Assembly (NCBI GenBank): GCA_963835575.1
Contig: CAWIGG010000002.1
Coordinates: 224,001 to 288,000 of the forward strand
From: an uncultured Spirochaetota bacterium
Lineage (GTDB): Bacteria > Spirochaetota > Brevinematia > Brevinematales > JAOACQ01
Length of the DNA stretch: 64,000 nt
Reading direction: 5' to 3'
The notes below the pieces were generated by a model, which was not told where the DNA came from, did no database searches, and saw only the letters and a list, made by a program, of their open reading frames with translations. Positions 1,404-43,869 of this stretch are shown one piece after another. Position numbers and translations under genes: made by a program. The stretch's first letter is position 1, and the number at the start of each line of letters is the position of its first letter.

Positions 1404-3296
1404 ATGAACATGAGACAAAAATCACAATTATCAAAAAGTATTATCCTGATTTTTCTGGCTTTAATAATGGGCTCCTGTACGGTTTTATCACCGGACCACG
1501 TTAATAGCGGCAGTCAGATAAATAATAATACTGAGAGAGCAACGGACATGAATAGTTTTGTCAAGACTTCCGGAACGCAGTTTGTCGTCAGCGGGAAAAC
1601 TTTTTATTTTAACGGGGCCAACCAGTATTATCTGTTCTACAAATCCCATGCCATGGTTACCGAGGTTATCACCGATGCCGCCGCTCTGGGACTTACCGTT
1701 ATCAGGACCTGGGGTTTCTGCGACGGAGCGCCAAAGGACAACAACTTCGGCTTCCAGCAGAGCGCCGGGGTTTATGATGAGGCGACATTCAAACAGATGG
1801 ATTTTACGATCAATACCTGCAAACAATACGGCATCCGTCTGGTTATCCCGCTGGTCAATAACTGGGACGATATGGGCGGTATGGACCAGTATGTCATATG
1901 GGCAGGAGCTTCAGCTCATGACGATTTTTACACAAACGTGCAGTGCCGGACCCTTTATAAGAGCTATGTCAATTATTTTTTGAACAGGACGAATTCTATA
2001 ACGGGAGTCGTGTATAAAAACGATCCCACCATCATGATGTGGGAACTGGCCAATGAGCCCCGCTGCGACAGCGACATGACCGGCATGAAGCTGAGCAACT
2101 GGATCAATGAAATGGCCGGTTATATCAAGAGCATCGATCAGAACCATCTGGTTTCGATCGGTTCAGAAGGATTTTTCAAGGGGGTCGGATACGGCTATCT
2201 TTATGACGGCTCTTCGGGATGTGATTTTGTCGGCCATAACAGGATCCAGTATATTGACGCGTGTTCCGCTCATCTTTATCCATCCAGCTGGGGCATTTCC
2301 ACGAACGATGCCGTCAACTGGATCATTATGGGGGCGACGAACGCTCATGTCACAGTAGGCAAGCCGTATTATCTGGGTGAATTCGGTTATCCGGATCATA
2401 CCGCGCGCAATCAGATTTATCAGGACTGGTACAATACGCTTTATGCTTACAACGCGGACGGGGCCATGTTCTGGCTTCTGAGCGGCCATCAGGATGACGG
2501 TTCCCTCTATCCGGACTATGACGGTTTTACCGTCTATTATCCCCAGGACACAAATACATGCGCCGTTATATCGGCATACTCCGTCAAGGCAAACGCCGAA
2601 ACCGGGCAAACCCCGGCTTCCGCGGCCAGCAGTACTGCTGTATCTTCTGTCAGTTCGAGCCGGTCTTCCAGCAGTGCGAGCAGCGCAGTTTCCTCGTCAG
2701 TCATTTCCAGCCGCTCGAGCTCGAGCGCGGCAATTTCATCGGCAGTCAGTTCGAGCCGGTCGAGCGTTGCATCCTCAATTGCCGTAAGTTCGAGCCATTC
2801 CAGTGCAGCTTCTTCTGCGGCTGTGAGTTCGAGCAGATCGAGCGTAGCATCTTCAGTTGCGGTAAGCTCCAGCCGGTCGAGCGTAGCTTCTTCAGCAGCA
2901 GTCAGCTCAAGCCTTGCCGCATCCAGTGTTGCAGCTTCTAGCGTGGCTTCCAGCACAGCAGTTTCATCAGGCAGCGGATATGCAGTTAATTACACCGTCA
3001 ACAATGACTGGGGTGCGGGCGCAACATGCACAGTGACGATTAAGAACAATAGCGCGACAGCCCTCAGCAGCTGGTCTCTTGTCTGGACTTTTGCAGGCAA
3101 CCAGGCTATAACCCAGATATGGAGCGCCAGTCAGACTACCAGCGGTGAAACAGTGACTGCCGTGAATTTAAGCTACAACGGTACGATCGGCGCGAGCGGC
3201 GGGACTCAGAGCTTTGGCTTCAATCTGAGCTACAGCGGATCCAATGCAAAACCGGCTTCGTTCACTTTGAATGGGTCGGCGTGCACGCTTTATTAA
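1404..3296 (+). CDS. GH5 (subfamily 7-like) beta-mannanase lipoprotein + linker + CBM2
   Basis: GANQYY, IRTWGFCDG, LVNNWDDMGG, WELANEPR (acid/base), YLGEFG (nucleophile), FWLL; GGAG RBS before ATG 1404; lipobox-like MGSC. Confidence 0.88.
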   Translation: MNMRQKSQLSKSIILIFLALIMGSCTVLSPDHVNSGSQINNNTERATDMNSFVKTSGTQFVVSGKTFYFNGANQYYLFYKSHAMVTEVITDAAALGLTVIRTWGFCDGAPKDNNFGFQQSAGVYDEATFKQMDFTINTCKQYGIRLVIPLVNNWDDMGGMDQYVIWAGASAHDDFYTNVQCRTLYKSYVNYFLNRTNSITGVVYKNDPTIMMWELANEPRCDSDMTGMKLSNWINEMAGYIKSIDQNHLVSIGSEGFFKGVGYGYLYDGSSGCDFVGHNRIQYIDACSAHLYPSSWGISTNDAVNWIIMGATNAHVTVGKPYYLGEFGYPDHTARNQIYQDWYNTLYAYNADGAMFWLLSGHQDDGSLYPDYDGFTVYYPQDTNTCAVISAYSVKANAETGQTPASAASSTAVSSVSSSRSSSSASSAVSSSVISSRSSSSAAISSAVSSSRSSVASSIAVSSSHSSAASSAAVSSSRSSVASSVAVSSSRSSVASSAAVSSSLAASSVAASSVASSTAVSSGSGYAVNYTVNNDWGAGATCTVTIKNNSATALSSWSLVWTFAGNQAITQIWSASQTTSGETVTAVNLSYNGTIGASGGTQSFGFNLSYSGSNAKPASFTLNGSACTLY

Positions 3297-3463
3297 GGGC
3301 AGTTCTAAAAACTCACATTTTTAGAACTGCCGACCTTGTTTTAGATCATGCGGCCGCTGAGTTCGCGCGGCGAACTCCACGCGGCAGCGATAGTTACAAA
3401 AACAAGGAATTTATTTTATAGGGGGCAGTTCCAAAAACTTAAGGTTTTTGGAACTGCCCTTAA
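3293..3463. mobile_element. MITE-like non-coding element with TTAAGGGCAGTTC terminal inverted repeats and two internal hairpins
   Basis: ttaagggcagttc (3293) ... gaactgcccttaa (3463); hairpins ggcagttctaaaaa/tttttagaactgcc and gggcagttccaaaaac/gtttttggaactgccc; related copies at 59747-59786 and 63829-63841. Confidence 0.55.
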
Positions 3464-3643
3464 GTGAAATTTCCGGAAATATTTCCGGTTTTTTATGATG
3501 GGATAGAAGAATATTTATAATGAGAAAAAGTTAATAATAGATAAGTCATTCAGCCCTGTCCGGGCCGGTGCCGCATCCCCCCCCGACCGCGGTATTCGGT
3601 TCCGGACCGGGCGAAAATGACGGATAAAAAATGGAGGAACATT

Positions 3644-5428
3644 ATGTCAGGGAAAAAATCAGGAAAACTTTTCTGTCTGTTTTTAGCAGGCGTGTTTTTT
3701 GTTCTTCAATATGCAGGCTGTTCTTTACAGTTACCGCAGGATTCCGGAACGCAGAGTCTGATGGTTAATCAGCCCAGAGCGACCGTCAGCAGTGTCGGAC
3801 GTCTGACAGGCATCAACTGGTTCGGCTTTGAGACCAGCGCTTACTGCCCGCATGGACTGTATATCAGGGATTATAAATCCATGCTGAAACAAATCAAGGA
3901 TCTGGGATTCAACTGTATCCGCCTGCCGTGGTGCAACGATATGCTGACTCAGACCACCCCTCCCTCGTCCATTCAAATCAACACAAATGAAAGAACGGAT
4001 GCCTATACCGGCCTGCATAACCTGAATGCCGATCTCGCCGGTTTGTCCCCTATACAGGTCATGGACAAGGTAATTGATGAAGCTACCAGAGTCGACGGTC
4101 TTAAGATCATTCTGGACTGCCATTCGCATACTGTTGACAACTATAATAATGAACCTTTATGGTACACATCATCCTGTTCAGAAAGTAAAGCGATTTCCGA
4201 TTGGGTCTTACTTATTAACCGTTATAAGAATAACCCCTATGTCTGCGGAGCAGACCTCAAAAACGAACCCCATGGCAATATGGGCTCATCCGGTATGAAG
4301 CCTCCCGCCACCTGGGGTTATGACGAGCCCGGTCAGGGAACAACAGACTGGAAAGCGGCCGCTGAAAGGATCGGTACCGCCATCCTTAACGCCAATCCCA
4401 ATATGATCATCATCGTGGAAGGCGTGGAATGCTATTACAATTATCCGACCGACACAGTCACCAATTTCTTCTGGTGGGGCGGCGAATTATCAGGCGTTGC
4501 CGACCATCCTATCACCGCTATTCCTTCCGCTCAGCTAATGTATTCGGCGCATGAATATGGTCCTCATGTGTATAACCAGCCCTGGTTTCAGGATTCGACT
4601 TTCCCGAATAATATGCCGGCCATCTGGGACAAGCACTATTATTTCATCAAGAAGAATGGAATCGGCTCTCTCTTCTTTGGTGAATTCGGTATTATGGAAT
4701 CTGAAGTTGACGCCGGCGGCGTGGCAGCCACATGGTATAAGAACTTTATGGCTTATATCGGAACCGCCAACAGCTGGACATTCTGGTGCATCAATCCCGA
4801 CTCAGGAGACACCGGCGGTATATTACAGAGCGACTGGGTTACGGTAGAAACGGGTAAATATAATATATTAAAGCCTTATCTGGCCGCTCAATTCTCTCCT
4901 CTCGGCGGCGGATCAAGTTCATCTTCCTCCTCTGTCGCGGCGAGTTCGAGCCTGGCCGCATCCAGCGTTGCGTCTTCGGTAACAGTCAGCTCCAGCCGTT
5001 CGAGCGCCGCTTCATCTATAGCTGTCAGCTCGAGCCGGGCCGCATCCAGTGTGGCTTCCAGTGTTGCGGTTTCCAGTATAGCTTCCAGCACAGCCGCTTC
5101 ATCAGGCGGTTACGCTGTTAATTACACAGTCAATAATGACTGGGGCGCAGGAGCTACGTGCACAGTAACAGTTAAGAATAACAGTGCGGCGGCTCTTTCC
5201 AGCTGGTCTCTTGTCTGGACATTCGCGGGCAATCAGCAGATTACGCAGATCTGGAGCGCTTCTCAAACGACCAGCGGCGAAACGGTAACAGCCGTCAATC
5301 TCAGTTACAACGGTGCGATAGGAGCGAACGGCGGGACACAGAGCTTCGGCTTTAATCTGAGCTACAGCGGTTCCAACGCCAAACCCGCGGCTTTTACTCT
5401 GAATGGGACAGCTTGTACAACTTATTGA
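3644..5428 (+). CDS. GH5 subfamily 1-like endoglucanase lipoprotein + linker + CBM2
   Basis: GINWFGFET, GFNCIRLP, DLKNEPH, HEYGP, FGEFG, WTFWCINPDSGDTGG (E1/Cel5A-type motifs); GGAGG RBS before 3644. Confidence 0.92.
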   Translation: MSGKKSGKLFCLFLAGVFFVLQYAGCSLQLPQDSGTQSLMVNQPRATVSSVGRLTGINWFGFETSAYCPHGLYIRDYKSMLKQIKDLGFNCIRLPWCNDMLTQTTPPSSIQINTNERTDAYTGLHNLNADLAGLSPIQVMDKVIDEATRVDGLKIILDCHSHTVDNYNNEPLWYTSSCSESKAISDWVLLINRYKNNPYVCGADLKNEPHGNMGSSGMKPPATWGYDEPGQGTTDWKAAAERIGTAILNANPNMIIIVEGVECYYNYPTDTVTNFFWWGGELSGVADHPITAIPSAQLMYSAHEYGPHVYNQPWFQDSTFPNNMPAIWDKHYYFIKKNGIGSLFFGEFGIMESEVDAGGVAATWYKNFMAYIGTANSWTFWCINPDSGDTGGILQSDWVTVETGKYNILKPYLAAQFSPLGGGSSSSSSSVAASSSLAASSVASSVTVSSSRSSAASSIAVSSSRAASSVASSVAVSSIASSTAASSGGYAVNYTVNNDWGAGATCTVTVKNNSAAALSSWSLVWTFAGNQQITQIWSASQTTSGETVTAVNLSYNGAIGANGGTQSFGFNLSYSGSNAKPAAFTLNGTACTTY

Positions 5429-5513: not shown

Positions 5514-7355
5514 ATGTCAGGAAAAAAATCAGGAAAATTCTTCTGTCTATTTTTAGCAGGCGCGTTTTTTGTTCTTTATTTTGCCGCTTGTTCTATACAG
5601 CCTGCACAGGATTCCGGGGCGCGTAGTCCGGCGGTCTTTCAGACCAGGGCGACAGTCACTGTCAATAACGTGGGAAGGCTGACCGGTGTGAACTGGTTCG
5701 GCTTTGAAACAGGGAATCTCTGTCCCCATGGTCTCTGGTCGAGAGACTACAAATCCATGCTCAAGCAGATTAAAGACCTGGGCTTTAACTGCATCCGTTT
5801 GCCCTGGTGTATTCCCGCGCTGACGGGAAGTCCGTCCAGTATCCAGATCAATGTTTACGGGATAGATGCCTACACAGGCCAGACTAATTTAAATGCCGAT
5901 CTGAGCGGTCTATCCTCTATTCAGGTTATGGATAAAATCATCGAGGTGGGAACACAGACTTATGGCCTTAAATTTATACTTGACTGTCATTCGCTTGTCG
6001 CCGATCAATACCAGAGCGAACCGTTGTGGTACACTTCCGGCGTTTCGGAAAGCCAATGGATTTCCGCATGGACGACCATTGTCAGCCGTTATGCGAATAA
6101 TTCTTATGTGATCGGATGTGATCTGAAAAATGAGCCGCATGGCAATACCGGCACCGGCTATAAACCCCCTGCGACATGGGGATATCAGGCTTCCGGTTAC
6201 GATGCATCGTCAAGTCCCACCGACTGGAAAGCGGCCGCTGAAAGGTGCGGTAAGGCGATTCTTGCGGTTAATCCCAATATCATTATCATGGTAGAAGGTG
6301 TGGAGCAATATAATAACGATTATTTCTGGTGGGGCGGCAATTTGGAAGGAGTGGCATCAAACCAGATCAGCACTTCCAGTATTCCTGCAAGCCAGTTGAT
6401 GTATTCCTGGCATGAATACGGCCCGGAGGTTTTCAACCAGTCCTATTTCACGAATTCCAGTTTTCCGAACAATATGCCCGCGATCTGGGATCAATTTTAC
6501 TATTTTATCAAAAAGCAGAATATTGCGCCCCTGTATCTTGGGGAGTTCGGCATAACGGAAGCCGGAGTCGACGCCGGTGGAACTGCGGCGACATGGTACA
6601 AGTCTTTAATGGCGTATGTGGGCAGTAATGTCAACTGGACGTTCTGGTGCATAAACCCTGATTCGGGAGATACAGGAGGCATCCTCCAGGATGACTGGGT
6701 CACTGTCAATACGGGCAAATACAATATTCTGAAGCCTTATCTGGCCGCTCAATTTTCACCCCTCGGCGGCGGGTCAAGTTCATCTTCATCCTCTGTTGCA
6801 GCGAGTTCGAGCCTGGCCGCATCCAGCGCTGCGTCTTCGGTAACAGTCAGCTCCAGCCGTTCGAGTGCTGCATCATCAGTTGCTGTGAGCTCCAGCCGGT
6901 CAAGTGCAGCTTCTTCAGTTGCTGTGAGCTCCAGCCGTTCGAGTGTTGCATCATCGGCAGCAGTCAGTTCAAGCCTGGCCGCATCCAGTGCGGCTTCCAG
7001 CGCTGCGTCGAGCGCGGCTTCCAGCACATCCGGCGGTTATGCCGTAAACTACAATGTCTCTAATGATTGGGGCACGGGCGCCACTGTCACGGTGACGATA
7101 AAGAATAATTCTGCCGCGGCCCTCTCGAGCTGGTCTCTTGTCTGGACATTCGCGGGCAATCAGCAGATTACGCAGATCTGGAGCGCTTCTCAAACGACCA
7201 GCGGCGAAACGGTAACAGCCGTCAATCTCAGTTACAACGGCATGATCGGAGCGAACGGCGGGACACTGGCTTTCGGATTTAACCTGAGCTACAGCGGCTC
7301 GAACGCCAAGCCGGCGGCCTTTACCCTGAACGGCACGGCATGTACGTTATATTAA
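5514..7355 (+). CDS. GH5 subfamily 1-like endoglucanase lipoprotein + linker + CBM2 (tandem paralog of 3644)
   Basis: Same motifs (GVNWFGFET, KNEPH, LGEFG, NPDSGDTGG); the RBS context atggaggaacattatgtcagg is identical to that of the preceding gene. Confidence 0.92.
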   Translation: MSGKKSGKFFCLFLAGAFFVLYFAACSIQPAQDSGARSPAVFQTRATVTVNNVGRLTGVNWFGFETGNLCPHGLWSRDYKSMLKQIKDLGFNCIRLPWCIPALTGSPSSIQINVYGIDAYTGQTNLNADLSGLSSIQVMDKIIEVGTQTYGLKFILDCHSLVADQYQSEPLWYTSGVSESQWISAWTTIVSRYANNSYVIGCDLKNEPHGNTGTGYKPPATWGYQASGYDASSSPTDWKAAAERCGKAILAVNPNIIIMVEGVEQYNNDYFWWGGNLEGVASNQISTSSIPASQLMYSWHEYGPEVFNQSYFTNSSFPNNMPAIWDQFYYFIKKQNIAPLYLGEFGITEAGVDAGGTAATWYKSLMAYVGSNVNWTFWCINPDSGDTGGILQDDWVTVNTGKYNILKPYLAAQFSPLGGGSSSSSSSVAASSSLAASSAASSVTVSSSRSSAASSVAVSSSRSSAASSVAVSSSRSSVASSAAVSSSLAASSAASSAASSAASSTSGGYAVNYNVSNDWGTGATVTVTIKNNSAAALSSWSLVWTFAGNQQITQIWSASQTTSGETVTAVNLSYNGMIGANGGTLAFGFNLSYSGSNAKPAAFTLNGTACTLY

Positions 7356-7394
7356 AATCCGTTTCAAAATAAATTGATAAGGAGGAAAATTTTT

Positions 7395-9488
7395 ATGAAA
7401 AAAGCGGGTTTTTTAGTTTTTGCGGGAATAGGCCTCTTACTGTTTTCACTGTACTTTGCTTGCAGCCTGAACCTCGGAGCAAGCAATAACGGTAAAGGCA
7501 ATGCCCCAGGAATAACCATACCCAGGGCCTTTGGCGATAGGATCACGGTCTCCGGCACCCAATTTTTCGCGGGCAGCAGCCGGATTTGGATCAACGGCGC
7601 TAATACGCCATGGAACAGCTGGGATGATATGGGCGGTACTATGGATACTAATTGGTGGAACACTGAGTTTCAAACTCTGCATACTAATGGCATTAATGCC
7701 ACACGCGTCTGGCTCATCTGCAGCGGTGATGTCGGAATTGTTATAGACAGCAGCGGCTATGTCTCAAACGCTACCGCCACTTTCTGGAATCACCTCGACA
7801 GTCTTATGCAGATATGCCAGAATCAACAGGTATATCTTGACGCTACCTTAATATCATTCGATTGTGTTAAGAACAATACTGCCTCTAACTGGAAAAATAT
7901 GTTTAATAGTGACAGCAGTATTGATTCATTTGTCAGTAATTTCTTGATTCCTTTAGTTAACCGTTACAAAAATAATCCCTGGCTCTGGACTATTGATCTA
8001 TGCAATGAACCGGATTGGCTTTTCGAGACTTATGGTATTCCATGGAACCGGATTCAGACATATTTCGCTAAATGCGCTGTAGGAATCCATGCGAACAGCA
8101 GCATCCTGGTCAATGTTGGAATGGCAATAATCAAATATAATAGTACTACATGCGCCGGTGCTCAGGGTAATATGGTAAGCGACGCCTCACTGCAAGCATT
8201 AGTGGGAGGCGATACAAGGGCGAAAGTCGATTTTTGGAATGTTCACTACTATCCCTGGATGGATCCATACTGGCCGGTTCCATTTAACGTGACACCGGTT
8301 GTTTTCGGTCTTGACGCGAGCAAACCGTCGATAGTCGGGGAATGCCCGGCTAAGGATTCGACAAACCATACTATTATAGGGGATTATGAAAATGCTTACC
8401 AGAATGGCTGGCAGGGAGTCATGCCATGGACGGCCAACGGTGTGGATGCTAACGGAGACATCACTACTTTGGGGCCTGCTACCCTGGCATTCCTGGGCAA
8501 TCATTACAGTCTTGTGTTTCCAGGCGGAACTAATAGCAGCTCGTCTAGTTTATCCAGCAGTTCGAGCACTTCGACTTCGCTCAGTGCAAGCTCTGCGTCA
8601 TCGGCTGTTAGTTCAAGCCGTTCGAGTGCCGTATCCAGCACTGTCAGTTCGATCAGCTCGGCAGCAAGCTCTTCGTCCGCTTCCGCACAGTATCTGAATA
8701 TCAATCTTCCCTTTACTAATGATGGAGTAGGAGAATATTACTGGCAGACAAGCGGCACGATTACCAGCATGAACTCATGGAATCTCGATGCTCTGGATGT
8801 GAATGGAACAAGCTTTAAAAACGTTTATGTCAGCGGCAGCGGCCTGCCCGCGAAGCAGAACGGGTACTACTATATTCACTATAAAGGCTCCTATTCCTAC
8901 AGTCACGTTGAAATTGCCGGCTCCGGAACGGTAAGCAGCAGCTCCGTTACCTCGGCCGCAAGCAGTTCGAGTTCTGTGTCATCCGCGGCGAGTTCGAGCC
9001 TGGCCGCATCCAGCGCTGCGTCTTCGGTAACAGTCAGCTCCAGCCGGTCAAGTGCAGCTTCTTCAGTTGCTGTGAGCTCCAGCCGTTCGAGTGTTGCATC
9101 ATCGGTAGCAGTCAGTTCCAGCCTGGCTGCATCCAGTGTGGCTTCCAGCGCCGCATCGAGCGCGGGAGGATACGCTGTGAATTACAATGTCTCTAATGAT
9201 TGGGGCGCGGGCGCCACAGTCACGGTAACGATAAAGAATAATTCTGCCGCAGCCCTTTCGAGCTGGTCTCTTGTCTGGACATTCGCTGGTAATCAGGCGA
9301 TCACTCAGATCTGGAGCGCTTCTCAAACGACCAGCGGCGAAACGGTAACAGCCGTCAATCTCAGTTACAATGGTGCGATCGGAGCGAACGGCGGGACACT
9401 GGCTTTCGGATTTAACTTGAGCTACAGCGGTTCCAACGCCAAACCGACGGCTTTCACGCTGAATGGAACGGCATGTTCAACATATTGA
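7395..9488 (+). CDS. GH5-type hydrolase (GH5_10 mannanase-like) + CBM64 + CBM2, lipoprotein
   Basis: NGANTPW, RVWL, DLCNEPDW, VHYY, IVGECP, MPW; internal module LPFTNDGVGEYYWQ...NSWNLDALDVNG...GYYYIHY...HVEI matches the CBM64 pattern. Confidence 0.75.
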   Translation: MKKAGFLVFAGIGLLLFSLYFACSLNLGASNNGKGNAPGITIPRAFGDRITVSGTQFFAGSSRIWINGANTPWNSWDDMGGTMDTNWWNTEFQTLHTNGINATRVWLICSGDVGIVIDSSGYVSNATATFWNHLDSLMQICQNQQVYLDATLISFDCVKNNTASNWKNMFNSDSSIDSFVSNFLIPLVNRYKNNPWLWTIDLCNEPDWLFETYGIPWNRIQTYFAKCAVGIHANSSILVNVGMAIIKYNSTTCAGAQGNMVSDASLQALVGGDTRAKVDFWNVHYYPWMDPYWPVPFNVTPVVFGLDASKPSIVGECPAKDSTNHTIIGDYENAYQNGWQGVMPWTANGVDANGDITTLGPATLAFLGNHYSLVFPGGTNSSSSSLSSSSSTSTSLSASSASSAVSSSRSSAVSSTVSSISSAASSSSASAQYLNINLPFTNDGVGEYYWQTSGTITSMNSWNLDALDVNGTSFKNVYVSGSGLPAKQNGYYYIHYKGSYSYSHVEIAGSGTVSSSSVTSAASSSSSVSSAASSSLAASSAASSVTVSSSRSSAASSVAVSSSRSSVASSVAVSSSLAASSVASSAASSAGGYAVNYNVSNDWGAGATVTVTIKNNSAAALSSWSLVWTFAGNQAITQIWSASQTTSGETVTAVNLSYNGAIGANGGTLAFGFNLSYSGSNAKPTAFTLNGTACSTY

Positions 9489-9710: not shown

Positions 9711-11636
9711 ATGAATCACTTGAAGGTTAAAGCGATTTTACTGTTCGGAAGCATACTGTGCTTTTTATGGTCATGCTCCGTAAACCCTATGAGTGAGAAA
9801 GGCCAGTCATTGTCTTTCACTGGGGTGAAAGCGACGGCGAACGGAAAGTTTTTGGGAAATATCTGGGGAGGCAATACCGAACCTCTGAACTTCAGCAAGT
9901 ATTGGAACCAGGTGACGCCTGAAAACGCAGGAAAATGGGGATCAGTGGAATTGTCCCAGGGCACTTACAACTGGAGTGATCTGGATGCGCAGTACAGTTA
10001 TGCCAAATCCAAAGGCTTCCCGTTTAAGTTTCATAATCTGGTATGGGGAAGCCAGCAGCCGAGCTGGATCAGTTCATTATCTGCCACAAACCAGGTGCTG
10101 GCTGTAATTGATTGGATCTCGAATGTCGGCGCAAGATACTCAAACCTTGATTTTATCGACGTGGTCAACGAACCGATTAAAACCGGCCAGCCTCCCTATG
10201 GGGCGGCCATCGGCGGCAGCGGTTCGACGGGATGGGACTGGGTCATTTTTGCATTTACGGTGGCACGGAAATATTGCGGCAATGCAAAACTGCTTGTTAA
10301 TGAATACAGTGTGGAAAATGATACCTCTGCAGCAGCGCAATACACCAATATTATCAATTTGCTGAAAAGCCGTAATCTGATAGATGGAGTGGGGATCCAG
10401 GGCCATTATTTCAGTTTGGACAGTGATGATACCGGTACTTTATCAAACTGTCTGTCAATTATATTGTCCACAGGCCTTCCGATTTACATTTCTGAGCTTG
10501 ACCTTGACGGAGATGATGCGACTCAGCTTTCCAGATACCAAAAATATTTTCCGATCCTCTGGAATTACTCAACGATTAAAGGCGTCACACTCTGGGGATA
10601 CATCCAGGGTTCAATCTGGACAACAAACGCTTATCTCTTAACCACTTCCGGGACGGAACGCCCGGCATTGACCTGGCTGATGCAGTATGTCGGCAATACT
10701 ACCTCGACCAGTTCCAGCAGCCCGGTTGCGTCTTCCAGCAGCGCGGCTTCGTCCGTACCTGTAAGCTCCAGCCGGTCGTCCGCGGCGAGCAGTATTGCTT
10801 CTTCAGTTGCTGTCAGCTCCAGCCAGGCGAGCAGTATAGCCAGTTCCGCTTCATCCTCAGTCCAGTATCAGAATATTACTCTTCCGTTCAGCTTTGACGG
10901 CACGGGAGAATTATACTGGCAGACAAGCGGTACGATCACCAGCATGAATTCCTGGAATCTTGATGCGCTGGATGTGAATGGGACAAGCTTTAAAAATGTG
11001 TATGTCGCCGGAAGCAGCCTGCCCGCGAAACAGAATGGATACTACTACATTCACTATAAGGGGTCATATTCCTATAGTCATGTTGAAATTGCCGGCACAT
11101 CAGGATCGGTGAGCAGCAGTTCGATAGCTGTCAGTTCCAGCCCGGCAAGCAGTGTCGCCTCTTCAATAGCGGCAAGCTCCAGCCGTGCAGCCTCTTCAAT
11201 AGCAGCTAGCTCTAGCAGATCGAGTATTGCATCTTCAGTAGCAGTCAGCTCAAGCCTGGCCGCATCCAGTGTCGCTTCCAGTGCGGCATCGAGCACGGCT
11301 TCCAGCACAAGCGGCGGGTATGCAGTGAATTATACCGTCAATAATGACTGGGGCGCGGGCGCCACAGTCACGGTAACCATAAAGAACAATTCCGCAACGG
11401 CCCTTTCGAGCTGGTCTCTTGTCTGGACATTTGCGGGCAATCAGCAGATCACTCAGATCTGGAGCGCCACGCAGACAACCAGCGGCGCGACCGTTACTGT
11501 GAATAGTTTAACTTATAACGGCGCGATCGGCGCGAACGGCGGAACGCAGAGTTTCGGCTTCAATCTGAGCTACAGCGGCTCGAACGCCAAGCCGGCAGCA
11601 TTTACTTTGAATGGGACGGCATGCTCGACTTATTGA
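9711..11636 (+). CDS. GH10 endo-xylanase lipoprotein + CBM64 + CBM2
   Basis: WNQVTPENAGKW, FHNLVWGSQQP, DVVNEP, GIQGH, ISELD, TLWGY. Confidence 0.92.
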   Translation: MNHLKVKAILLFGSILCFLWSCSVNPMSEKGQSLSFTGVKATANGKFLGNIWGGNTEPLNFSKYWNQVTPENAGKWGSVELSQGTYNWSDLDAQYSYAKSKGFPFKFHNLVWGSQQPSWISSLSATNQVLAVIDWISNVGARYSNLDFIDVVNEPIKTGQPPYGAAIGGSGSTGWDWVIFAFTVARKYCGNAKLLVNEYSVENDTSAAAQYTNIINLLKSRNLIDGVGIQGHYFSLDSDDTGTLSNCLSIILSTGLPIYISELDLDGDDATQLSRYQKYFPILWNYSTIKGVTLWGYIQGSIWTTNAYLLTTSGTERPALTWLMQYVGNTTSTSSSSPVASSSSAASSVPVSSSRSSAASSIASSVAVSSSQASSIASSASSSVQYQNITLPFSFDGTGELYWQTSGTITSMNSWNLDALDVNGTSFKNVYVAGSSLPAKQNGYYYIHYKGSYSYSHVEIAGTSGSVSSSSIAVSSSPASSVASSIAASSSRAASSIAASSSRSSIASSVAVSSSLAASSVASSAASSTASSTSGGYAVNYTVNNDWGAGATVTVTIKNNSATALSSWSLVWTFAGNQQITQIWSATQTTSGATVTVNSLTYNGAIGANGGTQSFGFNLSYSGSNAKPAAFTLNGTACSTY

Positions 11637-11874: not shown

Positions 11875-13985
11875 ATGAAGCTATTGAAGATGAAAGTTTT
11901 ATTACTGTCCGGAAGCATGCTGTGCTTTTTATGGTCATGCTCGTAAGCCCTTTGAGTGAGAAAAGTCAGTCATTGTCTTTCACCGCGGTGAAAGCGACGG
12001 CGAGCGGAAAGTTTCTGGGTAATATCTGGGGAGGCAGTTCCGAGCCCCTCAATTTCAGTACATACTGGAACCAGGTGACTCCTGAAAACGCCGGGAAATG
12101 GGGTTCCGTGGAATCCAGCCAGGGAACCTATAACTGGAGCGCATTGGACGCGCAATACAGTTATGCTAAATCCAGAGGATATCCTTTTAAATTCCATAAT
12201 CTGATCTGGGGCAGCCAGCAGCCTGCCTGGATCAGCACTTTGTCGGCCGCGAACCAGGTGCTGGCGGTCATCGATTGGATTTCGAATGTCGGCGCGAGAT
12301 ACAGCAATTTAGACTTCATAGATGTGGTCAATGAACCTCTGCATTCGCCGCCCTCCTATTCGAATGCGATGGGCGGAAGCGGCTCCACCGGCTGGGACTG
12401 GATTGTTTTTGCATTTCAACAGGCGCGGAAGTATTGCGGGAATGCAAAACTGCTTATCAATGAGTATGGCGTGGAGGGCAACACCACGGCCATGGCAAAC
12501 TACACGAATATCATCAGTATTCTTAAGGCTTCGAATTTGATAGATGGAGTGGGAGTCCAGGGGCATGATTTCAGTCTTGACGGCTGTTCACTAAGCACGC
12601 TGTCGAACTGCTTGTCTATGATTGCGGCCACAGGATTGCCGATCTATATTTCGGAGCTTGATCTTTCATCTACTGATGACACTGTCCAGCTTGGTCTTTA
12701 TCAGAAGTATTTCCCGGCATTGTGGGAAAATCCGGATGTCATGGGTGTTACTTTGTGGGGTTATATTCAAGGCTCAATATGGACTTCCAATGCTTTTCTT
12801 CTCTACACAAACGGCACGGAACGCCCTGCTCTGACATGGCTGACGAATTATGTGAGAGGCGGGGCTTCTTCTGCAGGCGGATCCATCCAGGTTTTTTTCT
12901 ACAACGGAAATACCAGTACATCAGTAAACAGCCTTTCCCTTAATTTTCTTATATCCAATACGGGACTCTCCATCATCAATTTAACCAATGTGACTCTCCG
13001 CTATTACTACACCATTGACAGCGCAACGAATCAGATCTTCAACTGTAATTACTCGACTTTAGGCAACAGCAGTGTGACCGGAAGTTTTGTAACGATGCCG
13101 AATCCCGGGCCGACTGCAGACAGATATGTTCAGATCGGCTTTACGAGTGCGGCCGGAAGCCTGTATGCCGGGAATAGCGCTGTGGTTCAAGTTGCGGTAA
13201 ATAAAAGTGACTGGTCCAGTTATATACAAACAAATGATTATTCATTTAATTCCTCGGCCGCAACATATACGTCCTGGTCAAAAGTGACCGGGTATATCTC
13301 AGGCACGCTTGCATTTGGCACAGAGCCGTCTTCCGGCAGTTCCTCATCCATCTCAAGTGTGAGTTCCAGTCTATCCAGTTCATTAAGCAGTTCCGTTATT
13401 TCCTCGAGCAGCAGCCGTTCCGCCGCATCATCTTCGGTCAGCTCCAGCCTGAGCTCGAGTAAATCGTCGAGCAGTGTGTCCAGTCCTGCTTCGAGCAGCA
13501 GCCGTTCCAGCGTTGCATCCAGCATTTCCTCATCAGTAGCAGTGAGTTCCAGCCTTTCCAGCGTTGCGTCATCGGCAGCGGTGAGCTCGAGCCTGGCAGC
13601 ATCCAGTGTTGCTTCAAGCGTTGCTTCCAGTGCAGCATCGAGCGCGGCATCCAGCACAAGCGGCGGGTATGCAGTTAATTATACAGTCAATAATGACTGG
13701 GGCGCAGGGGCTACGTGCACGGTGACCATAAAGAACAACAGCGCCGCAGCCGTAAACGGATGGACATTAGTCTGGACATTTGCGGGTAATCAGACTCTCA
13801 CACAGATTTGGAACGCAACTGACACCCAGAGCGGAGCAACTGTTACCGTTAAGAACGCGAGCTTTAATAATATCATCGGAGCGAGCGGCGGGACCCAGAG
13901 CTTCGGATTTAATTTGAGTTACAGCGGTTCGAATGTTAAACCCGCGGCATTTACTTTAAACGGTACGGCATGCACACTTTACTGA
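11875..13985 (+). pseudogene. GH10 xylanase + CBM3 + linker + CBM2 with a 1-bp deletion just after the signal-peptide Cys (pseudogene or sequencing error)
   Basis: RBS aaggag and ATG 11875 give MKLLKMKVLLLSGSMLCFLWSCS-stop (TAA 11944-11946). The paralog at 9711 has tgc tcc gta where this gene has tgc tc gta. The downstream frame (ORF 11922) has intact GH10 motifs and CBM3 (LRYYYTID, YVQIGF, QTNDYSF). Confidence 0.8.
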
Positions 13986-17560: not shown

Positions 17561-19351
17561 ATGAGGAAAATCTTAGTAAGGTTTCTGCTTCTTGCTCTAA
17601 CTCTTGCGGCCGCATTGTGTGTTGTGTCATGCGCGTTATCAATCCCGGACGGATCGAATCAGGGTGAAAAATCCCAGCCTTTGGGTTCGGGCTTGAGGGC
17701 CGCTCCGGTAGGCAGCGGCGCGTATCCTTACGGAACTGTTCTCGGGAATGACAATCAAATGCTTGTCAACAGCTACAGCACCTGGAAATCGAAATACGTC
17801 ACTTCTTCCGGGGCGTCGGGTTATCTGAGGGTCCAGCGCCCGGAAAATAACAATGATACTGTTTCGGAGGGCATCGGCTACGGCATGCTTATTGCCGTTT
17901 ATATGAATGACCAGGCGACATTCAACTCTCTGTGGAGCTATGCCCAGAAGTATCTGGACGCCGACGGCCTGATGAACTGGCAGATTGACAGTTCCGGGAA
18001 CGTTATCGGACAGAACGGGGCCACGGACGCCGATGAGGATATGACTCTGGCACTGGTTGCCGCCGATAAATTATGGGGCGGCTATACTTCTCAGGCCACG
18101 GGCATGATCCAGAAAATTTATAATAACGAGGTCGAAAGCGGCACCTACTGCATAAAGCCGGGTGATGTCTGGGGCGGATCGGCATGTATGAACCCATCGT
18201 ATTTTGCCACAGCGGAATACCGGGTTTTCGCACAGTATTCCGGCAATACAGGCTGGACTTCCGCGGCATCGGAATGCTATACGGTTTTAAACGCTAATAA
18301 AAACGCCACTACCGGTCTGGTGATGGACTGGTGCCAGGCTAACGGTACCCCTTCTTCCCAGCAGCCCGGTGGAACCAATTATCTCTATGATGCTTGCCGC
18401 GTTCCGATGAGAATATCTCTGGATTATCTGTGGTTCGGGACTTCAAGCGCACAGACTTTCCTGAATACAATGATCGGCTGGTTTGCCAATATCGGCGCAG
18501 CAAATATTAAGTCCAGTTATACTGTAACCGGGACCCCGCTTGTGACTTACCAGGATTGCGCCTTTTTAGGGCCCATCGCTGCCGGTTCATGCTCGGCATC
18601 AGTCAGTTCAACTTTCAGGTCTGATATTTTTACCGATTTGACCAACAGGGGCGTTAATAACAATTACTATAATGATTCTCTGGCAATGATCTGCATGCTG
18701 ATCACAACCGGACACTTCCCGAATCCTCTAACTTTGAGCGGGAACTCTTCATCTTCCGCAGCTGCCAGTTCGAGCCGTTCCAGCGCCGCCTCTTCAGCAG
18801 CTGTGAGCTCCAGTGCAAGCGTAGCTTCTTCTGCCGCTGTGAGTTCGAGCCGGTCGAGCGTCGCTTCTTCAGTTGCCGTCAGTTCGAGCCGGTCGAGCGC
18901 TGCATCCTCAGCGGCAGTAAGCTCTAGCAGATCGAGCGCTGCGTCTTCTGTGGCTGTGAGTTCGAGCCGGGCCGCATCAAGTGCAGCTTCCAGCGCCGCA
19001 GTGTCCAGTGCGGCTTCAAGTACAGCCGGCGGATATGCTGTGAATTATACAGTCAATAATGATTGGGGCGCAGGCGCTACATGCACGGTAACCATAAAGA
19101 ACAATAGCGCCGCGGCTGTAAACGGATGGACCTTAGTATGGACTTACACGGGTAATCAGACTCTCACACAGATATGGAACGCTGCATATACTGCAAGCGG
19201 AGAGACCATTACCGTCACAAACGCAAGCTTTAACAATGTTATCAGTGCTAACGGCGGGACTCAGAGCTTCGGCTTCAATTTGAGCTATAGCGGATCCAAT
19301 GCCAAACCAACGGCGTTTACGCTGAACGGGACGGCATGTACAACGTACTAA
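17561..19351 (+). CDS. GH8 endoglucanase lipoprotein + linker + CBM2
   Basis: TVSEGIGYGM, GLMNWQI, ATDADEDM, NPSYF, YDACRVP. Confidence 0.92.
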   Translation: MRKILVRFLLLALTLAAALCVVSCALSIPDGSNQGEKSQPLGSGLRAAPVGSGAYPYGTVLGNDNQMLVNSYSTWKSKYVTSSGASGYLRVQRPENNNDTVSEGIGYGMLIAVYMNDQATFNSLWSYAQKYLDADGLMNWQIDSSGNVIGQNGATDADEDMTLALVAADKLWGGYTSQATGMIQKIYNNEVESGTYCIKPGDVWGGSACMNPSYFATAEYRVFAQYSGNTGWTSAASECYTVLNANKNATTGLVMDWCQANGTPSSQQPGGTNYLYDACRVPMRISLDYLWFGTSSAQTFLNTMIGWFANIGAANIKSSYTVTGTPLVTYQDCAFLGPIAAGSCSASVSSTFRSDIFTDLTNRGVNNNYYNDSLAMICMLITTGHFPNPLTLSGNSSSSAAASSSRSSAASSAAVSSSASVASSAAVSSSRSSVASSVAVSSSRSSAASSAAVSSSRSSAASSVAVSSSRAASSAASSAAVSSAASSTAGGYAVNYTVNNDWGAGATCTVTIKNNSAAAVNGWTLVWTYTGNQTLTQIWNAAYTASGETITVTNASFNNVISANGGTQSFGFNLSYSGSNAKPTAFTLNGTACTTY

Positions 19352-31848: not shown

Positions 31849-31965
31849 TCAGCGAAACTATGTTCATCTGTGGTTAATTAACCCTTAAGGCAGTATTTAA
31901 TATGGAAAGAACAATTGGGGTTGAATAAAAAAGCAAAATGTTAACAAATATTTTAGGGGGTATAT

Positions 31966-32853: not shown

Positions 32854-32996
32854 CCCGGATGACACGGATGGGAACTGCTTAAAGTTAAATTAAAAATTGG
32901 GGGATAAAAAATTTCCCCAAAATTTATCGTAAGGATGGCAAAATGGCCCGGAAGAAGACGGAGGAGGAGATTAAGGTGGTGGAGGGGAACGGTTAA

Positions 32997-33719: not shown

Positions 33720-33737
33720 ATATCTAGGGAGAAACTC

Positions 33738-38277: not shown

Positions 38278-40116
38278 ATGAAAACAAGTGGAAAAATCCT
38301 GGTAAGATTATCGATTGTTGCCGCGGTTGTTTTGAGCTTTATTGTTTTTACAGCCTGCTCTCTTCAAAATCCCGACAACAACGGCAGTACAACTGTCCAG
38401 AACAGTACAACACAGACAAGGGCTTTTGCCGGGATGACGGAAGCGCTTACATTCTTTCACGCCAATTATTGCGGCTCAGGCCAGACCGTTTCCTGGAGAA
38501 GCAACTGTCATATGGGCGACAATCCCACCGGCGGTTACCATGACGCCGGCGACCACGTGAAGTTCAATCTTCCCGCGGCTTTCATGGCATCGATGCTCTG
38601 CTGGGCCGATTATGAATACGGCGGATTTTCAGCAGACGCGGAAATTTCAAGGGCCCTCAGCTATCTGAGCGCATGCTGGAACGGCAGCACTTATATCTAT
38701 CAGGTGGGCGACGGCGGTACAGACCATGCCTACTGGGGTTCTCCCGAACTTCAGACCGGTGCAAGGCCGTCATACAGCACGACCCAGGCTTCAGCCGCAA
38801 TGGCGCAGGCCGCCGCTGCTTTCGCGCTGGCCTCTATTACCGGCCATACAGGCGGCAATATCAATACTGCAAAATCCCTTTTTACAGCCGCTGACAACGC
38901 AAAGAGTGATGCCGGGTATGCAGCAGCCGCTAATGGTTATTATACATCAGGCGGATTCTATGACGATTTGATGTGGGCCGCTGTATGGCTCTATATTGCC
39001 ACAAGCGATTCGTCTTATCTGACAAAGGCTGAAGGCTATTACAGCAATCTGAATGCCGATATCATCTGGACACATTGCTGGGATGATTCTCGCTACGGCG
39101 CCATCCTGAAGCTCGCCCAGCTGACCGGCAAATCGGTCTATATCAACCGGGTCGAAACCAACCTTGACTGGTGGCAGAAAGGCACCAGCGGCGGTATTAC
39201 CTATACGCCCGGCGGACTGCCCTATCTGAACAACTGGGGATGCCTGCGCTATGCTTCTGCCGAAGCTTTCCTGGCCAAGATATGGGCCGATTATACATCA
39301 TTGGGCACTGCCAGCAAGAAAGCCGGCTATAAGACTTTTGCCAACAATGTGCTCAATTATATTGAAGGATCCAATCCTCAGAGTGAATGCTACATTATCG
39401 GTGTTGGAAGCAAATACCCTCAGTGTCCTCACCACCGTGCGGCAAATCCGGGCAAGACTTGCCCTTCATTGCATGTGCTCACAGGAGCCATGCCCGGCGG
39501 GCCTGATTCAGGTGATAACTTTGTCGATGATCCGAATCAGTACCAGTATACTGAACCTGCTATCGACTACAACGCATGTCTTGTTGCCGCTCTCGCGGCC
39601 GCAAACGGCACGCTGAAATCCCATAATTATTCCTCAGCCAGCAGTTCTTCGACAGCTTCGAGCCAGGCTAGCGTCGCTTCTTCAGCGGCAGTTAGCTCCA
39701 GCCGTTCGAGTGTTGCTTCTTCTGCTGCTGTAAGTTCCAGCCGTTCAAGTGTTGCATCCAGTGCGGCGGCTTCCAGTACAGCTGCCTCATCAGGCGGTTA
39801 CGCTGTGAATTATACTGTTAATAATGACTGGGGTGCGGGCGCAACATGCACAGTGACCATCAAGAACAACAGCGCTACAGCAGTGAATGGATGGACATTA
39901 GTCTGGACATTCGCCGGCAATCAGACGCTGACGCAGATTTGGAACGCGACATATACTGCGAGCGGCGCAACAATTACTGTTAAGAATGCAAGCTTTAACA
40001 ATATCATCGGCGCGAGCGGCGGAACGCAGAGCTTCGGCTTCAATCTGAGCTACAGCGGTTCGAACGCCAAACCGGCTTCGTTCACATTGAACGGAACGGC
40101 ATGCACAACATATTGA
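38278..40116 (+). CDS. GH9 endoglucanase lipoprotein + linker + CBM2
   Basis: GGYHDAGDHVKF, QVGDGGTDHAYWG, DDLMWAA, WGCLRYA, PHHR, TEPAIDYNA. Confidence 0.93.
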   Translation: MKTSGKILVRLSIVAAVVLSFIVFTACSLQNPDNNGSTTVQNSTTQTRAFAGMTEALTFFHANYCGSGQTVSWRSNCHMGDNPTGGYHDAGDHVKFNLPAAFMASMLCWADYEYGGFSADAEISRALSYLSACWNGSTYIYQVGDGGTDHAYWGSPELQTGARPSYSTTQASAAMAQAAAAFALASITGHTGGNINTAKSLFTAADNAKSDAGYAAAANGYYTSGGFYDDLMWAAVWLYIATSDSSYLTKAEGYYSNLNADIIWTHCWDDSRYGAILKLAQLTGKSVYINRVETNLDWWQKGTSGGITYTPGGLPYLNNWGCLRYASAEAFLAKIWADYTSLGTASKKAGYKTFANNVLNYIEGSNPQSECYIIGVGSKYPQCPHHRAANPGKTCPSLHVLTGAMPGGPDSGDNFVDDPNQYQYTEPAIDYNACLVAALAAANGTLKSHNYSSASSSSTASSQASVASSAAVSSSRSSVASSAAVSSSRSSVASSAAASSTAASSGGYAVNYTVNNDWGAGATCTVTIKNNSATAVNGWTLVWTFAGNQTLTQIWNATYTASGATITVKNASFNNIIGASGGTQSFGFNLSYSGSNAKPASFTLNGTACTTY

Positions 40117-40196: not shown

Positions 40197-40199
40197 ATT

Positions 40200-41272: not shown

Positions 41273-41475
41273 AACGCTGGCGAATTGTCATTTTTTGATT
41301 GGGATAAATCCCTGATTATATCTCGTTTTTAATTATATATAAATTTAATATAAAAAGGAGGAAATGATGGGAAAAACTTAAAAAAATAACAGGTCTGAAT
41401 AAAAAAGTTTAAAGTGTTAGTAAGAGCTTTATGAAAAGGTTATTACCTTTCATGAAGAAAAGTAAGGAGGAAAAG

Positions 41476-43869
41476 ATGAAGTCAAAAGTAAGAATCGGAT
41501 TAAAACTTCTGGCTGTTGTTTCCATTGTTTTGAGCGTTATTATTTTTGCCGCCTGTGCGCTTCAGAATCTTGACAACTCTAACGGCAGTACAACTGTCCA
41601 GAACAGTACAACACAGACAAGGGCTTTTGCCGGGATGACGGAAGCGCTTACATTCTTTCACGCCAATTATTGCGGCTCAGGCCAGACCGTTTCCTGGAGA
41701 AGCAACTGTCATATGGGCGACAATCCCACCGGCGGTTACCATGACGCCGGCGACCACGTGAAGTTCAATCTTCCCGCGGCTTTCATGGCATCGATGCTCT
41801 GCTGGGCCGATTATGAATACGGCGGATTTTCAGCAGACGCGGAAATTTCAAGGGCCCTCAGCTATCTGAGCGCATGCTGGAACGGCAGCACTTATATCTA
41901 TCAGGTGGGCGACGGCGGTACAGACCATGCCTACTGGGGTTCTCCCGAACTTCAGACCGGTGCAAGGCCGTCATACAGCACGACCCAGGCTTCAGCCGCA
42001 ATGGCGCAGGCCGCCGCTGCTTTCGCGCTGGCCTCTATTACCGGCCATACCGGCGGCAATATCAATACTGCAAAATCCCTTTTTACAGCCGCTGACAACG
42101 CAAAGAGTGATGCCGGGTATGCAGCAGCCGCCAATGGTTATTATACATCAGGCGGATTCTATGATGATCTGATGTGGGCCGCAATATGGATTTATCTTGC
42201 CACAAGCGACACCAACTACCTGAACAAAGCAGAATCTTATTATACTAATTTGAACTCCGATATCATCTGGACACATTGCTGGGATGATTCCCGCTACGGC
42301 GCCATCCTGAAGCTTGCCCAGATTACCGGAAAGAAAGTCTATATCAACCGGGTCGAAACCAACCTTGACTGGTGGCAGAAAGGCACCAGCGGCGGTATTA
42401 CCTATACGCCCGGCGGACTGCCCTATCTGAACAACTGGGGATGCCTGCGCTATGCTTCTGCCGAAGCTTTCCTGGCCAAGATATGGGCCGATTATACATC
42501 ATTGGGCACTGCCAGCAAGAAAGCCGGCTATAAGACTTTTGCCAACAATGTGCTCAATTATATTGAAGGATCCAATCCTCAGAGTGAATGCTACATTATC
42601 GGTGTTGGAAGCAAATACCCTCAGTGTCCTCACCACCGTGCGGCAAATCCGGGCAAGACTTGCCCTTCATTGCATGTGCTCACAGGAGCCATGCCCGGCG
42701 GGCCTGATTCAGGTGATAACTTTGTCGATGATCCGAATCAGTACCAGTATACTGAACCTGCTATCGACTACAACGCATGTCTTGTTGCCGCTCTCGCGGC
42801 CGCAAACGGCACGCTGAAATCCCCTGTTTATCCGACACCCACTCCGCCCCCGGTAAGTGCGGTTGGGACTGGAACTGGATTAACAGGCACATATTATGCT
42901 AATATGAATTTAACTGCTCCTGCTGCTTATTCTGAATTAGACACAAACATTAACTTTAACTGGAATGGCTCTGCACCCGCTACCAATATGCCTGCAACAT
43001 CATGGTCGGCTAAGTGGACCGGTTATATTCAGGCCAGAATGTCGACAACATATACTTTCCATCTTCTGTCTGATGACGGATCTACGCTGACTATTAACAA
43101 CGTTTCAGTCATTTCCGACTGGACAGATCATGCCAATGATGCGCAGTATAAAACTTCTGGAACAATTGCTATGACTGCAGGTACGCTTTATCCAATCACC
43201 GTAACTTACTATCAGGACGGTGGTTCGTCGGCTATTACCTTGAGCTGGGAAAATGGATGGCTGGCTGAAGAAGTTGTTCCGACAACCCAGCTGTATCCTT
43301 CAACGAATGGTACTAGCAGCAGTTCCAGTGTTGCTTCTTCAGTTGCAGCAAGCTCCAGCCGGGCAAGCAGTGTAGCTTCTTCTGTTGCAGTATCCAGTGT
43401 TGCTTCTTCAGTTGCGGTGAGCTCCAGCCGGTCGAGTGTAGCTTCTTCTGTTGCAGTATCCAGTGTTGCATCCTCAGTTGCGGTGAGCTCCAGCCGGTCG
43501 AGCGCCGCTTCAAGCGCGGCGGCTTCCAGCACAGCTGCCTCATCAGGCGGTTACGCTGTGAATTATACTGTTAATAATGACTGGGGTGCGGGCGCAACAT
43601 GCACAGTGACGATTAAGAACAACAGCGCGACAGCCCTCAGCAGCTGGTCTCTTGTCTGGACTTTTGCAGGCAACCAGGCTATAACCCAGATATGGAGCGC
43701 CAGTCAGACTACCAGCGGTGAAACAGTGACTGCCGTGAATTTAAGCTACAACGGTACGATCGGCGCTAACGGCGGTACGCAAGCTTTCGGCTTTAATCTG
43801 AGCTACAGCGGCGCGAACGCCAAGCCGGCCGCATTTACTTTGAACGGAACGGCATGCACACTCTATTAG
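41476..43869 (+). CDS. GH9 endoglucanase lipoprotein + PA14 domain + linker + CBM2
   Basis: Catalytic domain nearly identical to that of 38278; GTGLTGTYY, INFNW, SAKWTGYI, SDDGS, YYQDGG is PA14; AGGAGG RBS before 41476. Confidence 0.92.
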   Translation: MKSKVRIGLKLLAVVSIVLSVIIFAACALQNLDNSNGSTTVQNSTTQTRAFAGMTEALTFFHANYCGSGQTVSWRSNCHMGDNPTGGYHDAGDHVKFNLPAAFMASMLCWADYEYGGFSADAEISRALSYLSACWNGSTYIYQVGDGGTDHAYWGSPELQTGARPSYSTTQASAAMAQAAAAFALASITGHTGGNINTAKSLFTAADNAKSDAGYAAAANGYYTSGGFYDDLMWAAIWIYLATSDTNYLNKAESYYTNLNSDIIWTHCWDDSRYGAILKLAQITGKKVYINRVETNLDWWQKGTSGGITYTPGGLPYLNNWGCLRYASAEAFLAKIWADYTSLGTASKKAGYKTFANNVLNYIEGSNPQSECYIIGVGSKYPQCPHHRAANPGKTCPSLHVLTGAMPGGPDSGDNFVDDPNQYQYTEPAIDYNACLVAALAAANGTLKSPVYPTPTPPPVSAVGTGTGLTGTYYANMNLTAPAAYSELDTNINFNWNGSAPATNMPATSWSAKWTGYIQARMSTTYTFHLLSDDGSTLTINNVSVISDWTDHANDAQYKTSGTIAMTAGTLYPITVTYYQDGGSSAITLSWENGWLAEEVVPTTQLYPSTNGTSSSSSVASSVAASSSRASSVASSVAVSSVASSVAVSSSRSSVASSVAVSSVASSVAVSSSRSSAASSAAASSTAASSGGYAVNYTVNNDWGAGATCTVTIKNNSATALSSWSLVWTFAGNQAITQIWSASQTTSGETVTAVNLSYNGTIGANGGTQAFGFNLSYSGANAKPAAFTLNGTACTLY

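Follow-up and report, generated by a model that had tools for sequence, protein, structure and literature searches.

Glycoside hydrolase cluster and its lipoproteins

The window analysed here is a stretch of 64,000 nucleotides (G000:C2:224001-288000) from G000, the 4.39 Mb genome of a spirochaete of the order Brevinematales. It contains the end of a tandem glycoside hydrolase (GH) cluster, in which each enzyme terminates in a Ser-rich linker and a carbohydrate-binding module (CBM) of the family CBM2 (Table 1). Ten of these enzymes have visible N-termini with Lys or Arg followed by Ala ([RK]A) ahead of the domain. They are probably exported as lipoproteins and then released by a membrane-held protease that cuts after the basic residue.

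The first-pass annotation of the window had listed ten such motifs, and all ten are present. It had placed them behind spacers of 18-28 amino acids: In nine genes, 17-27 residues separate the lipobox Cys from Lys/Arg, while the GH10 gene at 11922 has no in-frame Cys. Its signal peptide (ATG near 11877) lies in another frame, with a one-base frameshift in window 11877-11950 (+). P0242, a database protein encoded on a different contig, matches this GH10 without a difference over 679 downstream residues and has an intact lipoprotein N-terminus, so the frameshift is likely an assembly error.

Table 1. Genes of the window and candidate protease genes of G000 (positions refer to the window unless a contig is given; each motif site starts with the Lys/Arg codon)
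Feature	Position	Strand	Remarks
GH9-CBM3-CBM2 gene, 3' part	1..1322	+	N-terminus outside the window (G000:C2:222677), K-A at +23
GH5-CBM2 lipoprotein	1365..3296	+	Cys codon 1476; R-A (TER-ATD) at 1536-1541
GH5-CBM2 lipoprotein	3617..5428	+	Cys 3719; R-A at 3776-3781
GH5-CBM2 lipoprotein	5514..7355	+	Cys 5589; R-A at 5646-5651
GH5 mannanase-fold enzyme with CBM64 and CBM2	7374..9488	+	Cys 7461; R-A at 7524-7529; Arg at the homologues' signal peptidase -1 position
GH10-CBM64-CBM2 lipoprotein	9711..11636	+	Cys 9774; K-A at 9828-9833
GH10-CBM3-CBM2	11877..13985	+	Signal peptide out of frame in the assembly (probably an error); K-A at 11991-11996
CBM6 and CBM2 lipoprotein, catalytic domain without Pfam match	14536..17238	+	Cys 14620; R-A at 14704-14709; longest tether
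GH8-CBM2 lipoprotein	17561..19351	+	Cys 17630; R-A at 17696-17701
Protein O-mannosyltransferase-like gene (PMT, PMT_4TMC)	20091..21869	-	Candidate modifier of Ser-rich linkers
GT87-like membrane glycosyltransferase	21866..23443	-	Overlaps the PMT gene
GH9-CBM2 lipoprotein	38278..40116	+	Cys 38356; R-A at 38419-38424
GH9-PA14-CBM2 lipoprotein	41431..43869	+	Cys 41554; R-A at 41620-41625
CBM-less GH5 lipoprotein	58611..59672	-	Cys codon at 59600; motif-free internal control
C11 clostripain-like lipoproteins of G000	C2:146293, C2:153235, C2:933249		His-Gly and Phe-Asp-Ala-Cys motifs
Omptin of G000	G000:C6:210890-211933 (L218)	-	Tyr replaces S1 Glu

A basic residue at a narrow distance from the lipidated cysteine

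G000 encodes 25 CBM2 proteins, 24 with a lipobox-like Cys and one, a GH48 enzyme, with an ordinary signal peptide. A heuristic of our own, whose lipoprotein predictions include some false calls, caught 22 of the 24 CBM2 lipoproteins and missed two. The pattern for picking the sites was composed after the sequences had been seen. Counting the lipobox Cys as +1, Lys or Arg is found at +19 to +29 (median 21.5) in 24/24 CBM2 lipoproteins, the position in the frameshifted gene being taken from a paralogue. It is followed by Ala in 22 proteins and by Ser and Met in one each. Within mature residues 15-34, [RK]A occurs in 20 of the 22 CBM2 lipoproteins that the heuristic found and in 22 of 205 other predicted lipoproteins (Fisher p = 4e-15, a value that is overstated as paralogues are not independent). 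Among 64 other lipoproteins with similarly polar tethers, four have it: two with CBM3, one ice-binding-like protein and one further protein.

Outside the site, Lys and Arg make up 2.6% of the tether residues (23 proteins). The tethers themselves are as unalignable as had been stated, with a median identity of 13% and 2 of 253 pairs more than 50% identical. Their length varies little (standard deviation 2.2 residues). Lys and Arg are interchangeable: The 27 G000 sites comprise 14 Lys and 13 Arg, written with five codons. The motif does span unrelated families, as annotated, namely GH5, GH8, GH9, GH10, GH12, GH27 and GH116 (7 Pfam families) as well as two domains without Pfam match. Families were assigned by a Pfam scan of all G000 CBM2 proteins except one GH9, which was assigned separately.

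The CBM-less GH5_2 lipoprotein at 59672 has no [RK]A ahead of its domain, in agreement with the first-pass annotation. Twelve carbohydrate-active lipoproteins without CBM2 or CBM3 (four GH5 with the control of the window among them, three GH8, GH13, GH16, GH43, a deacetylase and GHL15) were inspected, and [RK]A was present in one. The three GH8 lipoproteins without CBM2 have QK-S twice and QN-S once and were not tallied as motif-bearing. As far as these sequences tell, the site goes with modules directed at insoluble polysaccharide, apart from a single exception, and by every available sign the motif is real and selected for.

The GH48-CBM2 enzyme with the ordinary signal peptide is encoded outside the cluster (G000:C2:770886-773411 (-)).

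The site in other spirochaetes

Comparison genomes were G001 from the same genus, G007, G010 and G011 from a sister genus, and G063, G123 and G241 from a family of another order. Since relatives within each group are kin, the spread of the motif counts as two or three independent lineages. In the sister genus, 9/9 modular GH5 and GH9 lipoproteins with visible N-termini have Lys or Arg at +18 to +22 ahead of the domain. The next residue is Ala in four, Val in two and Thr, Pro and Gly in one each. Because Ala follows in only 4/9 of these enzymes, the basic residue, rather than Ala, is taken as the invariant element. In the family of the other order, 21 CBM64 enzymes were compared: [RK]A is present in 17, R-G in two and R-F in one, at +13 to +23. 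The background there, taken from a sample of 400 kb of G063, is 2/17 predicted lipoproteins. Both matches read VSR-A and belong to a CBM56 protein and an amylase. A CBM-less GH10 that adjoins a motif-bearing GH10 in G063 is devoid of the motif. To judge from these counts, the motif is common to cellulolytic spirochaetes of two orders.

In contrast, a GH9 enzyme of G004 has K-I. Among 120 GH5 homologues, four named Spirochaetales/Spirochaetaceae lipoproteins have R-S or K-G at +15 to +19; the GH5 homologues that are lipoproteins with long Gly/Ser/Pro tethers mostly have nothing comparable. A phylum-wide GH9 search yielded mainly other architectures without the motif and one family with R-A at +14 in three immunoglobulin-type GH9 lipoproteins.

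Register with signal peptidase sites

For the enzyme encoded at 7374, the place of the basic residue can be compared with a known type of processing site. A mature start of the xFGDRI type is shared by 71 of 119 homologues. The residue that precedes this start is Ala in 68 and Gly in three of them, and Arg in the 7374 enzyme. Two places before this -1 residue, 67/71 homologues have Ala, Val or Thr. Arg thus occupies the homologues' -1 place, and a cut after it would therefore yield the same N-terminus as processing of the homologues by signal peptidase I. The GH10 enzymes of the window have a predicted start that differs from the homologues' start by one or two residues at most (judged by eye). 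An AlphaFold model of the 7374 enzyme shows the GH5 mannanase fold with a predicted local distance difference test score (pLDDT) of 92.6. The pLDDT is 48 and 55 for residues 1-20 and 82 for residues 21-30, and the first strand begins at residue 28. Arg, residue 22, is in the model at the start of the ordered part, on the border between disorder and order.

Candidate proteases

The first-pass annotation had suggested looking for a gingipain- or clostripain-like protease. The clostripain type (C11) is present: G000 encodes three C11 lipoproteins with intact catalytic residues, and clostripain is their best match in the PDB. The Asp that precedes the catalytic Cys of C11 proteases plays a role in Arg/Lys binding. 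Two of the three genes lie 40-47 kb upstream of the cluster, and C11 was detected in 9/12 genomes of the family. G007 of the sister genus has only a divergent copy. A C25 gingipain was not found, in a search whose control gave no signal either.

The two upstream C11 genes belong to a lipoprotein array of some ten members with Gly/Ser tethers (L266, G000:C2:141276-159172 (-)) that also comprises beta-helix proteins and a CBM4-subtilase fusion. Elsewhere in G000, a lipoprotein (L268, G000:C5:379612-381147 (-)) matches the thiol-activated cytolysin family. Because related cytolysin lipoproteins in Bacteroidota are reported to be protease-activated (PMC11169675), the C11 proteases of G000 may, by analogy, have other substrates such as this cytolysin-like lipoprotein.

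Omptins are the second candidates. They cleave after Arg/Lys, and the roles of their residues have been described (PMC11410778). An omptin is encoded in G000 and in 3/3 genomes of the other-order family; of 401 spirochaete genomes sampled, 104 have one, among them 44/51 of one family. The match of the profile to OmpT has an E value of 2.5e-40, and the G000 protein keeps the four catalytic residues (Asp-Asp and Asp-His pairs). The S1 pocket corresponds to Glu27 and Asp208 of OmpT; the G063 omptin lacks the S1 Asp.

Three further families were considered. A C14 lipoprotein occurs in 3/3 genomes of the sister genus. S8 proteases were detected in 3/5 genomes and Trypsin_2 proteins, HtrA-like by reading, in 5/5; neither family offered a specific candidate.

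Proposed mechanism

We favour export as lipoproteins, followed by release through a membrane-held Arg/Lys protease that is fragipain-like in action, with a probability of roughly 65%. The enzymes would be exported by Sec, lipidated at the Cys and directed along the lipoprotein pathway, probably to the outer surface, as their lipobox-like signal peptides suggest. Where the disordered tether meets the folded domain, some 20 residues from the lipid, a membrane-held protease would then cut after Lys/Arg. The freed enzyme would have the N-terminus of homologues that are secreted via signal peptidase I, and could reach insoluble cellulose or hemicellulose via CBM2, CBM3 or CBM64. Enzymes without such a binding module, which mostly lack the site, would remain on the cell. 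Different lineages may employ different proteases. That a protease sheds the enzymes had been proposed at the outset; enrichment, C11 candidates, conservation in another order and the register support this idea, and the tie between C11 and the motif does not hold.

Several observations weigh against release by such a protease. In G001, [RK]A ahead of the domain is present in 0/2 CBM-bearing orthologues, with an Arg further up in both tethers. One CBM64 enzyme of G123 has a short tether with R-V at +8, and in G000 the CBM-less GH5 lipoprotein G000:C2:1805809 carries K-A. Moreover, C11 was not found in the motif-bearing genomes G063 (one contig, 99% complete), G241 and G010. Omptin is detected in 0/3 sister-genus genomes yet is present in G001, which lacks the motif. 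In the G000 omptin, Tyr replaces the S1 Glu, a residue that is near-invariant among 31 aligned omptins, although the S1 Asp is kept. C14 is absent from all three genomes of the other-order family. The Ser-rich linkers hold 84 Arg, mostly in SSSR-S and SSSR-A, and 17 [RK]A sites in the linkers of 12/27 proteins could be cut by a free protease. Finally, 18 of the 27 G000 sites have Thr, Val or Ser at P2, which fits the pattern of signal peptidase I.

The short-tether enzyme of G123 (L211, G123:C1:2062034 region) has an N-terminus resembling that of the CBM-less GH10 paralogue of G063 and is possibly recombinant. P0253, which its source labels as an S. thermophila GH10, has the same N-terminus as this G123 GH10.

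C14 was rejected as a common sheddase. It had matched the use of the motif among five genomes, yet fails in the other order. The sister-genus copies are lipoproteins; in G000, one copy lacks a signal peptide and another is fused to WD40.

Among the families tested, no protease covers every genome that bears the motif. Therefore, the sheddase would differ by lineage, or lie beyond these families, or be signal peptidase I itself. A lineage-specific sheddase would fit the looser P1' position in the sister genus. In G000, the likeliest sheddase is one of the three C11 lipoproteins, which takes about half of the remaining weight, followed by the omptin and then by others.

Linkers and O-mannosyltransferase

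Given the many Arg sites in the linkers, an Arg protease free to diffuse would cut the CBM off the enzymes. A membrane-held protease may reach only the lipid-proximal site, in line with its narrow spacing. In addition, the linkers may be glycosylated and their Arg sites shielded. The PMT gene of the window directly follows the cellulase cluster. Among four PMTs compared, it is closest to those of G063 and G241 (38-39% identity versus 22-23%), which lie one gene from CBM64 enzyme genes; by its coordinates, the PMT of G123 is placed in the same way. PMT_4TMC is found in 25 of 401 spirochaete genomes, including 12/12 of this family, where it is mostly of a more distant type. In four genomes, the O-mannosyltransferase encoded next to the enzymes may thus serve to shield linkers, and this arrangement, together with the neighbouring glycosyltransferases, suggests a dedicated O-glycosylation of linkers in spirochaetes.

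In G063, G123 and G241, the closest type of PMT belongs to a longer fused gene, with a glycosyltransferase gene of family GT2 behind it and CBM64 enzyme genes alongside.

A comparable arrangement is the glucan degradation locus of Caldicellulosiruptor bescii, where a PMT-family gene (GT39, Cbes_1864) adjoins genes for multidomain cellulases. Deletion of GT39 there abolishes glycosylation and raises CelA cleavage (PMC6151902). The C. bescii enzymes are not described as lipoproteins in the available part of that report; the likeness covers linker protection only.

Alternative explanations

The motif could instead mark the enzymes for translocation to the surface or for loading into vesicles, as a sorting or recognition signal; they would then stay lipidated and attach cells or vesicles to the substrate. 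The narrow tether length (standard deviation 2.2 residues) and the lack of a single protease that co-occurs with the motif agree with such a role, and short tether signals for lipoprotein export have been reported from Bacteroidota (PMC12632263). However, 60/64 other lipoproteins with polar tethers lack the motif, and both the ancestral cleavage position and the interchange of Lys and Arg suit the P1 residue of a protease better. We regard a sorting signal as unlikely.

A shade less likely is a cut by signal peptidase I after the Ala of T/V/S-[RK]-A, which would produce a soluble form beside the lipidated one. This would account for the missing special protease, since signal peptidase I is encoded in 5/5 genomes checked. 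Besides the P2 residues mentioned above, Ala stands next but one after P2 at 25/27 G000 sites, the sites of the other-order family are mainly S-R-A, and Arg/Lys is at -2 in 26/71 of the homologues' ordinary signal peptides. However, the invariant residue is the basic one, which signal peptidase I, following the -3/-1 rule, is not known to need; nor is it known to accept Val, Pro or Met at -1. The residue after Lys/Arg is other than Ala in 5/9 sister-genus enzymes (V, T, P, G, V) and Met once in G000; Val or Pro would occupy -1 in three of the nine. P2 is P, E, K, Q, N or M at 7/27 sites. Furthermore, the site lies 17-27 residues past the Cys, where no hydrophobic anchor remains after lipoprotein processing, and the Arg of the 7374 family is at -1, not -2, of the ancestral site. 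G000 has a single frame for signal peptidase I.

Least likely is a relic without function, left by donor signal peptides (x-K/R-A) at gene fusion or by an N-terminal cassette that spread through duplication. In its favour, most copies belong to a single tandem cluster whose CBM2 modules are nearly identical, both G001 orthologues have lost the motif and donor-type signal peptides commonly end in RA or KA. On the other side, the median tether identity of 13% speaks against a cassette, the motif persists in two orders and in no fewer than seven GH families, the GH5 donors mostly end in VSA, VMA or INA, and a relic in the 7374 family would read K-A-A-F-G where the window has R-A-F-G.

Comparison with known systems

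Release by a membrane-held protease most resembles the action of fragipain and doripain (C11). Known cuts of fragipain are at Arg-Ala in BFT and Fab1, and the protease reportedly sets many lipoproteins free from the cell surface (PMC8406203, PMC12632263). There, a lipoprotein precursor is cleaved at Arg-Ala and the C-terminal protein is released; here, precursor and site are predictions. C11 lipoprotein proteases with the same catalytic motifs are encoded in G000. The substrates have a predicted lipobox Cys (22/24 by the heuristic, one by eye, one restored by P0242), and Arg/Lys followed by Ala or a small residue lies in an accessible segment, whose border was modelled for one enzyme. The differences concern the phylum and the substrates, which here are modular cellulases and hemicellulases. 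A cut would remove only a 20-residue tether and not a prodomain, Lys is as frequent as Arg, and some motif-bearing genomes lack a detectable C11. The proposed mechanism would work like the fragipain route, but because C11 is not tied to the motif, we do not count it as a member. As lipoprotein shedding is already known in Bacteroidota, the route is not of a new kind.

The type V pilins, to which the motif had first been compared, are more distant. In Mfa1, Cys20 is followed by a cut at Arg49-Ala50, and FimA is cut at Arg46-Ala47, both by Arg-gingipain (PMC13655056). The lipidated Cys, about 30 residues and then Arg-Ala are shared, so that part of the analogy stands. In contrast, the substrates here are GH-linker-CBM proteins with neither pilin fold nor strand exchange, and the proposed outcome is release instead of polymerisation.

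A third parallel is provided by the omptin sheddases. IcsP, an omptin, sheds a surface protein of its own cell. Omptins with both catalytic pairs are present in G000 and the three genomes of the other-order family. However, OmpT favours dibasic sites, and no omptin was found in the three sister-genus genomes. The acidic S1 residues deviate in two copies, with Glu missing from that of G000 and Asp from that of G063. The CBM64 glycanases of Spirochaeta thermophila, seven of which were reportedly described by Angelov in 2011, have the same architecture as the enzymes studied here. In a search of titles and abstract openings that covered few subscription papers, no paper was found that notes a tether motif or release route for these glycanases, nor one on a tether motif or lipoprotein shedding of spirochaete cellulases in general. 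The main text of a phylum-wide preprint mentions neither lipoproteins nor omptins (10.1101/2025.07.04.663154).

Other features of the window

A group II intron remnant (window 40210-41077 (+)) with three Rfam matches and an internally shortened open reading frame of 132 amino acids sits just past a terminator-like hairpin between two GH9 paralogues. The cluster is split by an island of low G+C content (30-41%, window 24444-34775), which encodes an Eco57I-type restriction-modification fusion, an SMC-like ATPase, an S1/P1 nuclease and a RhuM-family gene. Two large LamG-containing lipoproteins with near-identical N-termini are encoded at window 43989-47345 (-) and at G000:C3:281938-285288 (+).

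Implications

How soluble enzymes pass the two membranes of a spirochaete is poorly understood. In at least two orders, free-living spirochaetes that degrade cellulose might share an undescribed general secretion route for such enzymes with a lipoprotein path, a clip at a basic residue at fixed distance from the membrane and a sheddase swapped between lineages. The latter could be an omptin in the S. thermophila-like family, a clostripain in the genome studied here and a C14 lipoprotein in the sister genus with its relaxed P1', while an O-mannosyltransferase linked to the cluster would guard the Arg-containing linkers against that very protease. This wider scenario is tentative, and we consider it rather doubtful as a whole. 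If release by an Arg/Lys protease proves true, the motif would predict the mature N-terminus of each CBM64 enzyme to one residue. It would also give a sequence rule that separates released from anchored lipoproteins, and the right expression boundaries for cellulases. Protease-driven shedding of lipoproteins, known from the toxins and pili of Bacteroidota, would then also cover an entire cellulase system of the non-cellulosomal type in a second phylum.

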